Of a DNA stretch of 64,000 bases, positions 5,275 through 52,985 are shown in pieces. Every line of letters begins with the position of its first letter. The first letter of the stretch is position 1. The translations under genes and the position numbers were made by a program. The DNA lies in assembly GCA_036502405.1 (NCBI GenBank), contig DASXYP010000047.1, forward strand, positions 10,432 through 74,431. The letters run 5' to 3'. Under the pieces are notes generated by a model. The model did not search any database and was not told the origin of the DNA. It saw only the letters and a program-made list of their open reading frames with translations. The stretch comes from Acidimicrobiia bacterium (lineage in GTDB: Bacteria; Actinomycetota; Acidimicrobiia; IMCC26256; JAENVU01).

Positions 5275-5979
5275 CTACGGGAGGTCGACGCCGGTCGATC
5301 CGCTCGCGAGGTTCGTCGGCTCCGCGCCGGCGTAGAGCGTCACGCCACCGGCTCCGGCGACCGACCAGCTCGGCCCGGGCCGGCGCAGGAGCGCGGTCTC
5401 CTCGTCGATGCCGGCCAGGACCGCGGCGGCGGGGAGCAGGTCGATCGAGCGCTCGCGCAGGTGGTCGGCCGCGCTGCCGTGGTACGGGAACACCGCGACA
5501 CCCACCACGACACCCAGACCGACGGTGTACGCGCCGCCGCGAGGATCGACCATCGGGTCGCAGAGCACGGTCGCACCGGCACCCGAGGCCGCGAGGACCG
5601 AGCCGCTGCGGTACGCGGCGAGCAGCGCCTCGAAGAGGCCCGACCCCTTGAGCACCGAGCGCAGGTGCAGGGGTGATCCGTCGGAGATGTAGACGAAGCG
5701 GGCGTCGCGCACCGTCTCCGCGATCTCCGCGCTCTCCGCCTCGGTGCGGTGCAGCACCGGCAGCTCGCGGACCTTCGCGCCGAGCTTGGCGAAGTGCGCG
5801 CCCGCGGCGTCGACGACCCGGTCCGGGTGCTCGTAGGCCGCCGCGGTCGGCAGGACCAGCACCTCGGTCCCGCCGCTCGCCTCCAGCAGTGCCGCGTCCA
5901 GGTCACGGGTGCCGTCGCGCCACTCGCCCCCGCCGACCAGCGCGAGCGTGCCGGCGACTTCGGTACCCGAGGAGGTCAT
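5275..5979 (-). CDS. Peptidase S51/cyanophycinase-like (type 1 glutamine amidotransferase fold) protein, possibly catalytically degenerate
   Basis: LVGGGE, VLPTAAA, YISDGSP motifs; elbow reads ASGAG and the His motif reads FPYH. Confidence 0.8.
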   Translation of the reverse strand: MTSSGTEVAGTLALVGGGEWRDGTRDLDAALLEASGGTEVLVLPTAAAYEHPDRVVDAAGAHFAKLGAKVRELPVLHRTEAESAEIAETVRDARFVYISDGSPLHLRSVLKGSGLFEALLAAYRSGSVLAASGAGATVLCDPMVDPRGGAYTVGLGVVVGVAVFPYHGSAADHLRERSIDLLPAAAVLAGIDEETALLRRPGPSWSVAGAGGVTLYAGAEPTNLASGSTGVDLP

Positions 5980-6085
5980 CGCCGGGCACCTTATCCAGCG
6001 GTTCGCGGGCCCGGCTCGCCTGGCGACCCGTCCTTACCGGCCGGTAACCTCTCCGGTTCCACACCGGCCGCAGGGGGAAGTCACG

Positions 6086-49667: not shown

Positions 49668-50642
49668 TCAGCCCGAGAGCTCGGCCCGGGCCCGCGCGAA
49701 GAAGTCCAACGCGGCCCCGCGTTGGTCCGCGTGGTCGGCGAAGGCGGCAAGTCCCAGTGCCGCGAACGACCCCTCGTTCCAGAAGGTCTCCGAGTGCGGC
49801 GTCCACGGGGACACGTACACGTACGGCTCGGGGTGCTCCGCGTCTCCGGGTGACGCACCGTACGTGGCGCGTCGGCCGGCGGCTTCGTCGCCGAAGTCGA
49901 ACGAGAGGTCGAAGTGCTCGGGCCAGAGCTGCACCCGCGCGGGACTCAGGTTCCCCGCGTCGGCGCGCAGGGCTTCGAGCACGGAGGCGGCGAACCCGAA
50001 CCAGTCGGCGAGGAACCGCGCGGCCGCACCAACGACGAGCAGGGGAGCATCGGGCTCGAGGGGCGTCGTCGGGGTGTACACGTCGGTCGGCGCGCCGGTC
50101 TGGATTCCCAGCGCGTCGGCCGCGGCGCGGACGGTCGTGAGCGGGTGGAGCGTGGCCGCGCCCGCAACGACGTGGGTCAGGCCATCGACTCCGACGCGGA
50201 CCTGCTCGTCGGCGCCGAAGAACGGCGTGCCGAACCCGCCGCGCGTGAAGCGCAGCCCGATCTTGCCGTTCGCCCGGTAGCGCGCCGGCGCGACGACGTG
50301 CTCGGCCAGCGTGTGCCACGAAGTTCGCGTCGCCACGAGCGCGTCACGGTCCGGGGGCAGCACCAGCGGCCGCCACGCGCCGAGCCACCGGTCCGCGCAC
50401 CAGGGCGCGAGGTCCGGCTCGTCGTGAGCCAGGTCGTCCCACGTCGTTGCGGCGCCCACAACCGGCACCGGAGCAAGCACCGGGCGCTCGGAGCCGTCGG
50501 AGTCCTGGACGGGATCGTCGGCGAAGAGCGGTGGCGCGGTCGAGGCGGGTGGCGACGGCTCCAGCACCCGGACGTCGAAGCGGTCACCCGTTCGTTCCCG
50601 GGCCTCGCGCCGCGGGTCCACGGAGGAGCCGTCAGTGCTCAT
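49668..50642 (-). CDS. Hypothetical protein (DUF5996-like)
   Basis: GFGTP, QLWPEHFDL, GASPGD..HPEPY.YV motifs. Confidence 0.7.
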   Translation of the reverse strand: MSTDGSSVDPRREARERTGDRFDVRVLEPSPPASTAPPLFADDPVQDSDGSERPVLAPVPVVGAATTWDDLAHDEPDLAPWCADRWLGAWRPLVLPPDRDALVATRTSWHTLAEHVVAPARYRANGKIGLRFTRGGFGTPFFGADEQVRVGVDGLTHVVAGAATLHPLTTVRAAADALGIQTGAPTDVYTPTTPLEPDAPLLVVGAAARFLADWFGFAASVLEALRADAGNLSPARVQLWPEHFDLSFDFGDEAAGRRATYGASPGDAEHPEPYVYVSPWTPHSETFWNEGSFAALGLAAFADHADQRGAALDFFARARAELSG

Positions 50643-50824
50643 CGGCTGCCCACCCTACGACCGGCATCGGGCCGGGCCGCTCGCCGTGGCCCTCGCCCTT
50701 CGGTCCGTGAGGTTCACGATGATCTCGCCGATTGGGAATCCCCGGCGGCCGGTCGGCCGTTCCTCCCCGGGTGTGACGGACGCCCGGCATGGATAGCGTT
50801 CGTGGGCGATCGAAAGGAGCTCCC

Positions 50825-50911
50825 GTGCTACGACATGCGCTCTCTCATCACATCTACCTCGCCTCGATCCGCGACGAGGACTGGGTCGCCGCCCAGTTCG
50901 GCTACCGGTAG
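50825..50911 (+). CDS. Putative 28-aa leader peptide/uORF MLRHALSHHIYLASIRDEDWVAAQFGYR
   Basis: TAGCGT -10 at 50794, SD GAAAGGAG at 50812-50819, GTG 50825, TAG directly abutting the egtA ATG. Confidence 0.7.
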   Translation: MLRHALSHHIYLASIRDEDWVAAQFGYR

Positions 50912-52183
50912 ATGCCGACGCCGACGCAGGACCTCACCCTCGGCCACGCTCGACGCGTCGTCGCCGAGCACGGCTTTCTGACCTCCGCCCCCTCCCGCCC
51001 CGCCCCCACCTCCCCCGGCGCCGCCCGGCTCGGCATCGAGATCGAGTGGCACACGGTTCGCACCGACGACCCCGAACGCGCGGTGCCGTTCGACCGGCTC
51101 GAGTCGATCGCAAGGTCGATCCCCCTGCCGGGTCGCAGCCGCCTGACCTTCGAGCCCGGTGGCCAGGTCGAGCTGAGCTCGCAACCGCTCCCCCACTTCG
51201 ACGCGTGTCGCGTGATCCGCTCCGACGCCGCCGCGCTCACGACCGGGCTCGCGGCGGAGGGCATCGGGCTCGTCGGCGTCGGGCTGCTGCCCGGGCCTCG
51301 CACGCGCGTGCTGCGATCACCGCGGTACGACGCGATGGAGGCGCATTTCGATGCGCTCGGTGACGCCGGGCGCACGATGATGCGCCAGACCGCGGCCGTC
51401 CAGGTGAACGTCGACCTTGGTCCGGACCAGCAGTCGCCGAGCCGGTGGCAGAGCGCGCACGCGCTCGGTCCGCTGCTCGCCGCGGTCTTCGCGAACTCGC
51501 CGTTCGCGGCGTCGGGGCCGTCGGGCTGGAGCTCGACCCGGCTCGCGGTCTGGCTGGCGCTCGAGGGCGGCCGCTCGGCCCCCGTCGGCACCAACGGCGG
51601 CGCCGGCTCCGCGTGGGCCGAGTACGCGCTGCGGGCGCCCGTGATGTGCATCCGGGTGTCGGACGACGAGTTCGTTCCCGTCTGCGAGCCGCTGACGTTC
51701 GCGGACTGGATCGTCGACGGCCACGAGCTCGGCTGGCCGACCGAGGACGACCTCACCTACCACCTCACGACGTTGTTCCCACCGATCCGGCCGCGCGGCT
51801 GGCTCGAGCTCCGGATGATCGATGCGCTCCCGTCCGAGTGGTTCACGGTGCCGGCGATCCTGACCGCCGCGCTCCTCGAGGATTCCGAGGCGTCCGTGCA
51901 GATCGCGCGCGGACTGGCCCCCCTCGCCGGCCGTTGGGCCGATGCCGCGCGCGACGGTCTGCGTGACGCCGACTTCGCCGCGGCGGCGAAGGACTGCTTC
52001 GGCGCGGCGCGCCGCGCGCTCGGACGCCTCGGCGCACGGCGCGACATCACCGACATCCTCGAGCTCTACCGCGAGCGGTACGTCGATCGCGGCCGTTGTC
52101 CGGCCGACGATCTCCTCGAGTCGTGGCAGACGACGGGCCGTCTGACCCCGATGCCGGAGAGCGCGCCCGCACCCGTCGACTGA
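50912..52183 (+). CDS. egtA: Glutamate-cysteine ligase GCS2 family, EgtA-like
   Basis: LGIEIEWH, TFEPGGQVELSS, MMRQTAAVQVN, FANSP, HLTTLFPPIRPRGWLELRMIDA; egtB/C/D absent from the window. Confidence 0.82.
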   Translation: MPTPTQDLTLGHARRVVAEHGFLTSAPSRPAPTSPGAARLGIEIEWHTVRTDDPERAVPFDRLESIARSIPLPGRSRLTFEPGGQVELSSQPLPHFDACRVIRSDAAALTTGLAAEGIGLVGVGLLPGPRTRVLRSPRYDAMEAHFDALGDAGRTMMRQTAAVQVNVDLGPDQQSPSRWQSAHALGPLLAAVFANSPFAASGPSGWSSTRLAVWLALEGGRSAPVGTNGGAGSAWAEYALRAPVMCIRVSDDEFVPVCEPLTFADWIVDGHELGWPTEDDLTYHLTTLFPPIRPRGWLELRMIDALPSEWFTVPAILTAALLEDSEASVQIARGLAPLAGRWADAARDGLRDADFAAAAKDCFGAARRALGRLGARRDITDILELYRERYVDRGRCPADDLLESWQTTGRLTPMPESAPAPVD

Positions 52184-52247: not shown

Positions 52248-52985
52248 ATGACAGCCGCGGTCGTGCTCGTCCACGGAGCCTGGCACGGGGCGTGGTGCTT
52301 CGAGCCGGTGCTCGAACGCCTCGCGGGCACGGGCGTCGAAGCCTTCGCGGTCGACCTCCCCGGCCACGGCGCCGACCGGGGCCCGCTCGGCGACCTGCAC
52401 GCCGATGCGGCACGCGTGCGCGAGGTGCTGGACGGCATCGACCGGGACTGCGTGCTGCTCGGCCACTCGTACGGCGGCGCGGTGATCACCGAGGCGGGCA
52501 TCCACCCTGCGGTGCGCCACCTGGTCTACCTGGCGGCGTTCGCGCTCGACGCCGGCGAGTCCTGCATGGCCGCCGCGATCGCCGAGTCGCAGGCGATGCA
52601 GCTCGCGTACGACGGGCCGAACCTCGCGGACGCCTTCGTCCCCCACGAGGACGGGACCATCACCGTCGAGCCCGGCGGCGCGGTGGAGCTCCTCTTCCAG
52701 GACTGCGATCCGGCGACCGCGGCATGGGCCGTCGATCGGCTCGGACCGCAGCCGAGCGTGACGCTCGGGGACGTCCCGACCGCAGTTGCCTGGCGCGAGC
52801 GGCCTTCGACCTACGTCGTGTGCACCGAGGACCGGGGCGTGCACCCCGACCTCCAGCGCGCGCTCGCACGCCGATGTGACGAGCAGGTGGAATGGCCGAC
52901 GAGCCACTCGCCGTTCCTGTCCGCGCCGGATCGGGTGGCCGACCTCGTCGCGGGCATCGCGCGCTCGCTCCTGCCGCGGGGCTAG
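52248..52985 (+). CDS. Alpha/beta hydrolase (Abhydrolase_6-like)
   Basis: LVHGAWHG, GHSYGG, SHSPFL motifs. Confidence 0.9.
   Translation: MTAAVVLVHGAWHGAWCFEPVLERLAGTGVEAFAVDLPGHGADRGPLGDLHADAARVREVLDGIDRDCVLLGHSYGGAVITEAGIHPAVRHLVYLAAFALDAGESCMAAAIAESQAMQLAYDGPNLADAFVPHEDGTITVEPGGAVELLFQDCDPATAAWAVDRLGPQPSVTLGDVPTAVAWRERPSTYVVCTEDRGVHPDLQRALARRCDEQVEWPTSHSPFLSAPDRVADLVAGIARSLLPRG

Follow-up and report, generated by a model that had tools for sequence, protein, structure and literature searches.

The subject of this analysis is a small upstream open reading frame (uORF) that immediately precedes an egtA-like glutamate-cysteine ligase gene in a 64-kb stretch of DNA from an Acidimicrobiia bacterium (contig DASXYP010000047.1; this entire stretch of 64,000 nucleotides is hereafter the window). 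An earlier note, drawn from the letters of the window, had described this uORF, or leader ORF, as a histidine-rich candidate translational attenuator whose RNA could hide the egtA start. The elements that it enumerated, namely the TAGCGT hexamer, a Shine-Dalgarno (SD) sequence, the GTG at 50825, the 28-codon ORF, the direct abutment of its TAG on the egtA ATG and two potential RNA helices, are all present at those positions. The leader and the gene that it precedes are laid out as follows, in coordinates of the window:

50794 to 50799, forward strand: probable -10 promoter element TAGCGT (TANNNT type), assigned by conservation and position only.
50812 to 50819, forward strand: SD sequence of the leader ORF, GAAAGGAG, 5 nucleotides (nt) before the GTG at 50825, read from the sequence.
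50825 to 50911, forward strand: leader ORF MLRHALSHHIYLASIRDEDWVAAQFGYR, 28 codons plus TAG with a GTG start; homologous ORFs are found in 68 non-redundant loci.
50858 to 50908, forward strand: conserved C-terminal block LASIRDEDWVAAQFGYR, the last 17 codons, anchored to the stop and recognized by codon-position entropies.
50909 to 50911, forward strand: UAG stop of the leader ORF, abutting the in-frame egtA ATG at 50912, read from the sequence.
50912 to 52183, forward strand: egtA-like glutamate-cysteine ligase of 423 amino acids (aa), without an SD of its own (TIGR03444, PF04107).

The 423-aa ORF scores 372.4 bits against the EgtA equivalog model TIGR03444, which places it marginally above the cut-off of 370.8, and it matches the GCS2 family (PF04107) with E = 1.6e-46. 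The ATG at 50912 is the first possible start after an in-frame stop, and the N-terminal pattern M-x-x-P...L8...A13...G21-F22 is kept across 25 homologs; judged by this alignment, it is the true start of egtA. A misannotated start, with the apparent uORF as an N-terminal extension of EgtA, was ruled out, given the in-frame stop ahead of this ATG and the agreement of the ATG with the N-terminus that the homologs share. The 16 nt before this ATG contain no SD-like sequence, in keeping with the earlier note's statement that the gene lacks one. Further upstream, the pattern TA..GT is common to all five close relatives (TAGCGT, TAGCGT, TACGGT, TACCGT and TACGGT); a generic sigma-70 scan returned no site at 50794-50799, and the -10 element is therefore assigned from conservation and position only.

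To place the uORF in a comparative framework we fetched 164 egtA loci and searched them with a profile built from the peptides of close relatives. The profile matched a uORF in 72 of these loci, 68 of them non-redundant, with hidden Markov model (HMM) E-values of 1e-9 to 1e-16 over the 68. In scans of genome and metagenome contigs the best relative stood at about 54% among the matches listed, and closer relatives were fetched individually. The EgtA identity to the window copy is 90% in locus L161, about 70% in L162 and L163, and 66% in L151. All 72 uORF copies lie on the egtA strand and immediately upstream of it, so that conservation upstream of orthologs, which the earlier note had named beforehand as a check on its proposal, is borne out. 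The loci that bear the uORF belong to Acidimicrobiia, Acidimicrobiales and unclassified Actinomycetota metagenome-assembled genomes (MAGs), along with soil and sediment metagenome contigs; the profile search recovered no homologous uORF in about 70 Streptomyces-type egtA loci. Searches of large databases yielded 241 clusters in one case and 96 representatives at 50% identity in another. Two of the matches belong to repeat proteins that have no relation to the family, and a third is a copy with a frameshift. Database members of the family are unnamed or labeled "hypothetical protein", some were never called as genes, and they carry no Pfam domain. The leader peptide had no match in Pfam or NCBIfam even at E-values up to 10, and the leader RNA none in Rfam better than E = 2.5. 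A literature search found no account of an egt leader peptide or uORF, with full-text queries for "egtA" being swamped by the chelator EGTA.

Among the leader peptides, lengths of 24 aa (31 loci) and 27 aa (19 loci) predominate, the window copy having 28. The N-terminal part of the leader varies by subclade in both sequence and length, whereas the C-terminal part forms a block that is fixed relative to the stop codon. Over the last 17 codons of the 68 leaders the entropies at codon positions 1, 2 and 3 are 0.60, 0.44 and 1.11 respectively. Running right up to the stop codon is a motif, R-[DN]-x-x-W-V-x-A-x-[FY]-G-[HY]-R, whose Trp(-9) and Gly(-3) never vary; nearly invariant are Arg(-13), Val(-8), Ala(-6) and Arg(-1) (positions are counted back from the stop). 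These residues are retained through different codons, Gly(-3) being encoded by GGG, GGC, GGA and GGT, and Arg(-13) by CGC, CGG, CGA and CGT. Likewise, the string GSIRDEDWV[AN]AQFGYR-stop is unchanged in L162, L163 and L151 despite synonymous changes (ATC/ATT, GCC/GCG/GCA and CGG/CGC/CGA). None of the 68 loci shows an insertion or deletion between Trp(-9) and the stop, and in nearly all of the 96 representatives the match ends at the last residue of the peptide, regardless of any N-terminal extension in the called gene. In the nearer relatives the last 10 residues are 100% identical against a mean of 77% for EgtA, and a second comparison gave 70.5% against 50.2%. A six-frame check showed that the uORF frame alone is open in all 68 loci. 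Given the excess of third-position entropy, the synonymous codon usage and the single open frame, the uORF has the characteristics of an ORF that is translated and whose product experiences purifying selection; on these comparative grounds it is genuine, occurs more than by chance and is under selection at the level of the peptide. In this respect the earlier note was right that a genuine small ORF lies here. An antisense gene was ruled out as the cause of the conservation, since frame +0 is the only one open in 68/68 loci and is also the frame in which the codon periodicity runs.

Two further observations relate to the limits of the family. An Acidimicrobiales MAG (L004, positions 5900-6010) carries a divergent uORF, MTHLIHLRHLALAAIFNPRWVGATTGHR followed by a stop, which keeps just W-V-x-A-x-x-G-H-R-stop and lies 12 nt before the egtA GTG; it is useful toward defining a minimal motif. 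In the uORF-less egtA loci of Streptomyces, Actinacidiphila and similar organisms (L009-L080, at about 5850-6000) EgtA has a conserved acidic N-terminus, MVESQEDPDMSD, and the DNA before it is also conserved. Peptide words that recur upstream of Streptomyces-type egtA were examined as a candidate leader and rejected, as they represent the EgtA N-terminus itself.

The junction between the two ORFs has an equally consistent architecture. SD-like matches of 4 nt or longer stand before the uORF in 68/68 loci (5 nt or longer in 57), as against 2/68 for the egtA starts, none of which reaches 5 nt. The distance from the uORF stop to the egtA start lies between -1 and +9 nt in all 68 loci, with a mode of 2 and a value of 0 in the window, and the egtA start codon is ATG in 35 and GTG in 33. 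Among 12 egtA loci without a detected uORF, 8 have an SD-like match before egtA, although a single redundant sequence accounts for 4 of these 8, and of the 12, L089 proved to have a uORF truncated at a contig end; the SD matches weakly favor coupling. The uORF stops also stand apart: UAG is used in 39 loci, UAA in 23 and UGA in 6, whereas the neighboring egtA-D genes together with six intervening ABC-transporter genes use UGA 127 times, UAG 28 times and UAA 5 times. Thus, UAG or UAA terminates 62/68 uORFs versus 33/160 neighbors (Fisher p = 2e-24, uncorrected for phylogeny). The uORF and egtA share a reading frame in 20/68 loci, including the window, and are out of frame in the remaining 48, and there is no uORF-EgtA fusion among the 96 representative matches. 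The coupling architecture is, as far as sequence comparison can tell, conserved, and from it we infer that egtA translation would depend on translation of the uORF. That the leader ORF is obligatorily and translationally coupled to egtA, which the earlier note had listed among its alternatives, appears very probable from this arrangement.

In terms of genomic context, counted over the uORF-bearing loci with at least 1.5 kb of downstream sequence, 34 loci run on from egtA into egtB, nearly all of these also into egtC and egtD, and five have egtE. Relatives with about 50% identity that carry the same uORF sit in such egtABCD(E) operons. egtA stands alone after the uORF in 8 loci, which comprise the clade of the window and one other. 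Neither the 64-kb window nor L161-L163 contain egtB, egtC, egtD or egtE; hence the description of the gene as an orphan egtA is right for the window, while in most relatives the same uORF heads a canonical egt operon. When the look-up was made starting from the peptide, a GCS2 gene came next in seven cases, of which five run on into egtB and egtD and two are contigs that end inside egtA. In a further case, a JGI contig (3300056388, P0292), a variant uORF with an altered C-terminus (...APVRNLDWVAACFGKLDL, ending in ...FGKLDL) overlaps the start of an egtB-egtD unit without egtA. The presence of the uORF before orphan egtA, before full operons and before egtB-egtD thus indicates that it goes with the front of the egt transcription unit and not with EgtA, and this argues against a role as substrate of the ligase or as a dedicated partner of EgtA.

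On the same contig an ABC-transporter ATPase gene lies immediately 5' of the variant uORF; it gives just a faint match to a CBS domain, a domain of the sort known from OpuA-type transporters. Similar ATPase ORFs read in frame into the uORF in P0245 and P0272. Elsewhere in the collection egtA and egtB are called as one product of 749 aa (L164, 8159-10408; GCS2, DinB_2 and FGE-sulfatase domains), and egtC and egtD as one of 588 aa (L168, 10720-12486; GATase_4 and Methyltransf_33 domains). These joint products may be gene fusions or may reflect missed stops.

We favor, with moderate confidence, a reading in which the conserved and translated leader ORF is the ribosome entry point for egtA and the nascent peptide modulates termination and reinitiation at the junction. 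Ribosomes would load at the strong SD of the leader and synthesize a peptide (mostly 24 or 27 aa, 28 here) that is short enough to stay wholly inside the exit tunnel. They would then terminate at a UAG or UAA situated -1 to +9 nt from the SD-less egtA start and reinitiate at that start. The stop-anchored C-terminus would most likely act in cis on the ribosome by slowing or blocking release of the peptide. As the egtA start is within reach of the footprint of a ribosome halted at the stop, such a ribosome would, from the geometry, cover and occlude it, and the peptide would by this means set the amount of EgtA. A metabolite or redox signal might possibly regulate this step, and in most relatives such regulation would extend to the whole egtABCD(E) operon. 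All-round amino acid conservation that is anchored to the stop is what one would anticipate if the nascent peptide worked on the peptidyl-transferase center or a release factor. The features by which arrest peptides are recognized in sequences are found here, namely conservation at the amino acid level, fixed distances of residues from the stop and a tunnel-length peptide, as are those of termination-reinitiation, namely a stop within a few nt of the start and a ribosome-binding site on the uORF and not on egtA. More specifically, it is possible, and we propose it only tentatively, that the leader is an arrest peptide that senses ergothioneine, hercynine, cysteine or gamma-Glu-Cys, a related thiol or redox state, and blocks release factor 1 (RF1)-type termination at UAG or UAA, thereby gating reinitiation. 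The stalling itself, its direction of effect and any ligand are speculative.

Comparisons with characterized systems help define this proposal. SpeFL, the leader of speF in γ-proteobacteria, senses a metabolite of its pathway and stalls at its UAG codon, which then occupies the A-site while Arg34 is in the P-site (10.1101/604074). It resembles the egt leader in being a short leader ORF conserved as amino acids, and the egt leader also ends in Arg-stop, mostly with UAG or UAA. However, SpeFL has 34 aa, lies 257 nt upstream of speF and acts through Rho-dependent termination, whereas the spacer here is -1 to +9 nt and there is no homology between the two. In view of this short spacer and the SD-less egtA, any effect here would, unlike that of SpeFL, be exerted directly on reinitiation or by occlusion of the start site. 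TnaC, MsrDL, PepNL and SpeFL all act on the peptidyl-transferase center or release factor (PMC11890864), and TnaC, PepNL and MsrDL are nascent peptides of 14-24 aa that block release-factor action from within the tunnel. Their function requires conserved residues whose spacing from the stop is fixed (PMC11890864, PMC8450073). These three differ from the egt leader in sequence, host lineage and downstream logic (Rho or unmasking of an SD), and TnaC and PepNL act on release factor 2 (RF2) at UGA, a stop that the egt leader family avoids.

With respect to the coupling itself, the SD-less PPE2 gene of Mycobacterium tuberculosis is strictly dependent on termination-reinitiation from its uORF (PMC11260477). 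The uPPE2-PPE2 pair shares with the egt junction an actinobacterial uORF that has its own SD, a tight stop/start junction and an SD-less downstream gene. It differs in being under the control of a B12 riboswitch and in having an AUGA overlap, while the egt leader shows no conserved RNA structure, mostly a gap of 2-4 nt after UAG or UAA, and a strongly conserved peptide. Coupling and ribosome occlusion have also been reported in Sinorhizobium meliloti (PMC13285730). Beyond bacteria, plant conserved-peptide uORFs are recognized by the same comparative signature (PMC2075485, PMC5587730). These, like the arg-2/CPA1 uORF of fungi, belong to eukaryotic scanning mechanisms and show no homology to the egt leader, the analogy being functional only. 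The fungal case concerns the arginine attenuator peptide of roughly 24 aa, in which a metabolite-dependent stall at the stop lowers downstream initiation. Finally, the hisL/trpL attenuators, with actinobacterial examples (PMC1262725), resemble the egt leader as short translated ORFs before a biosynthetic operon. Those attenuators have runs of regulatory codons and alternative hairpins with a peptide that is otherwise free to vary; in contrast, the egt leader has no codon runs and no conserved hairpins, no terminator-like site was found at the locus, and its peptide is conserved.

Several points weigh against our preferred reading. The case for translation, stalling and ligand dependence is comparative throughout, and whether stalling would repress or activate egtA is suggested by geometry only. 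Neither the stop-codon bias nor the pair counts carry a correction for shared ancestry. Most of the loci were gathered through similarity to EgtA, which the peptide-first look-ups (seven leading to egtA and one to egtB) partly offset. PDB chains, among which ribosome-bound arrest peptides of at least 20 aa should be represented, were searched with a profile; no similarity to any known arrest peptide emerged, the only match being a chance one to an antibody (E = 0.14). C-terminally anchored conservation is also known in cofactor-precursor peptides. Lastly, a released peptide of 24-28 aa could act in trans.

This last point leads to the chief competing explanation, in which the uORF is simply the first cistron of a coupled unit and its 24-28-aa product is a microprotein that binds or regulates an Egt enzyme, or has some other job, with no programmed stalling. 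Selection at the peptide level and the steady adjacency to egt genes are both compatible with it, as is the constraint on nearly every one of the last 13 residues, which is like that of a peptide buried in a partner. The peptide also appears from its sequence to be soluble and charged rather than membrane-like. Nevertheless, the conserved block is flush with the stop, without C-terminal extension or indel in the 68 loci and nearly all of the 96 representatives, while the N-terminus is free to vary, and a microprotein offers no obvious reason for the bias toward UAG and UAA. As the uORF occurs with orphan egtA and once with egtB-egtD without egtA, no single partner enzyme is always adjacent to it. 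We hence regard a trans-acting microprotein as the main rival to an action of the nascent peptide in cis, and as somewhat unlikely.

Appreciably less probable is a sensing of amino acid supply through codons, a variant on the earlier note's idea, in which ribosomes pausing at His (or Trp or Arg) codons when the charged tRNA is scarce would lower egtA translation without any RNA switch, as the uORF ends at the egtA start. Histidine is the precursor of ergothioneine, and the leader was described by the earlier note as His-rich, which holds for the window copy (His at codons 4, 8 and 9) and for the composition of the family, with His and Trp constituting 8.5% and 7.8% respectively of the uORF residues. 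The positions of the histidines vary, and that part of the description does not extend to the family. His is found at -5 and -2 in 44-45/68 loci, a distance at which a ribosome pausing there would cover the start of egtA; however, both positions are non-His in the clade of the window, His(-2) alternates with Tyr in 23/68 loci, and His(-5) is replaced by Gln, Ser or Arg. Moreover, 22 of 57 distinct peptides have at most one His, and adjacent His codons occur in just 7, so that His codons are not supported as the sensor that the note had envisaged. Conservation is equally strong at residues other than His, a pattern for which codon sensing offers no explanation.

The attenuator originally proposed combined the His codons with an RNA helix, in which CATCTACC (50851-50858) pairs with GGTAGATG (50907-50914) to hide the egtA start, and a ribosome on His codons 8-11 opens or closes this helix. 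The two arms are exact reverse complements, a possible inner hairpin of 8 bp with one G-U pair is formed by GGACUGGG and CCCAGUUC (50878-50885 and 50892-50899), and both helices occur in the minimum-free-energy fold of the window. The stability of that fold is nonetheless unexceptional relative to dinucleotide shuffles (z = -0.62, with 60/200 shuffles at least as stable). In L161 the 5' arm reads CCTCCACC, which introduces two uncompensated mismatches against an unchanged 3' arm. When the structure was imposed on the 68 leaders, 60.6% of cells pair compared with 60.5% in shuffles (237/500 reach the observed value), and no excess of covariation was detected for either helix. RNAalifold found essentially no consensus structure for these leaders (-1.4 kcal/mol), and each of the five closest relatives has a predicted fold of its own (z between -0.62 and +1.03). 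We therefore find this helix-based model highly improbable. Judged by these comparisons, the leader is not a his-type attenuator, having neither a conserved His run nor conserved alternative helices.

Equally improbable is that the peptide is a precursor or scaffold, acting as substrate of the GCS2 ligase or another enzyme (as a peptide made by the ribosome and modified after translation (RiPP) or in the manner of PqqA/MftA) or as a readthrough extension of EgtA: a small ORF with a strictly conserved C-terminus heading a biosynthetic operon, in frame with egtA in the window, would suit it, but Cys is absent from the peptides and Glu nearly so, no radical-SAM, RiPP recognition element (RRE), peptidase or other maturase gene is present in the seven loci examined for Pfam content, the free-histidine pathway explains all of the egt genes, one locus lacks the ligase altogether, and, given the out-of-frame arrangement in 48/68 loci and the want of fusion proteins, amber readthrough cannot be a general function.

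The surroundings of the uORF-egtA unit in the window include two other ORFs:

52248 to 52985, forward strand: alpha/beta-hydrolase gene 3' of the orphan egtA, a possible operon partner (PF12697, E = 8e-35).
49668 to 50642, reverse strand: ORF of 324 aa, divergent from the uORF-egtA unit, without a Pfam or NCBIfam match.

An alpha/beta-hydrolase gene also follows the orphan egtA in L161, L162 and L163, and on the basis of this shared order the two genes possibly form one operon. Further 3' of it in the window (region to about 57000) is a DUF2505 gene, and synteny with L161 predicts further genes there, one antisense and MTHFR-like, one for a heavy-metal P-type ATPase and one for a CsoR-type repressor. 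The divergent ORF is itself syntenic in L161-L163, where the called genes encode 232-325 aa and are likewise without a Pfam match. In the divergent intergenic region, about 50 nt 5' of the putative -10 element, lies an imperfect 10-bp palindrome, GGGAATCCCC (50734-50743), which is kept in L161, L162, L163 and L151 and may, from its position and conservation, be the binding site of a regulator.

While translationally coupled leader ORFs are already known as a kind, what emerges as new from this comparison of sequences is a family of conserved-peptide leader ORFs coupled to egtA. The family has so far gone unannotated and could enter annotation resources, and as an element of roughly 90 nt the leader can be moved into reporter constructs. 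If metabolite-dependent stalling proves true, it would add a sensor to the few known nascent-peptide sensors, such as TnaC and SpeFL. Such a leader would stand out among bacterial ones by its output logic, as reinitiation would be gated directly and not via Rho or remodeling of RNA. If the sensing reading is true as well, the leader would be the first known arrest peptide from Acidimicrobiia, working by occlusion of a start site, and would provide the first known case of cis-acting sensing in a low-molecular-weight-thiol pathway. To our knowledge, little is known of the translational control of ergothioneine synthesis in bacteria, and the leader at the head of egt operons provides a concrete control point for this pathway in a large and mostly uncultured class of actinobacteria.

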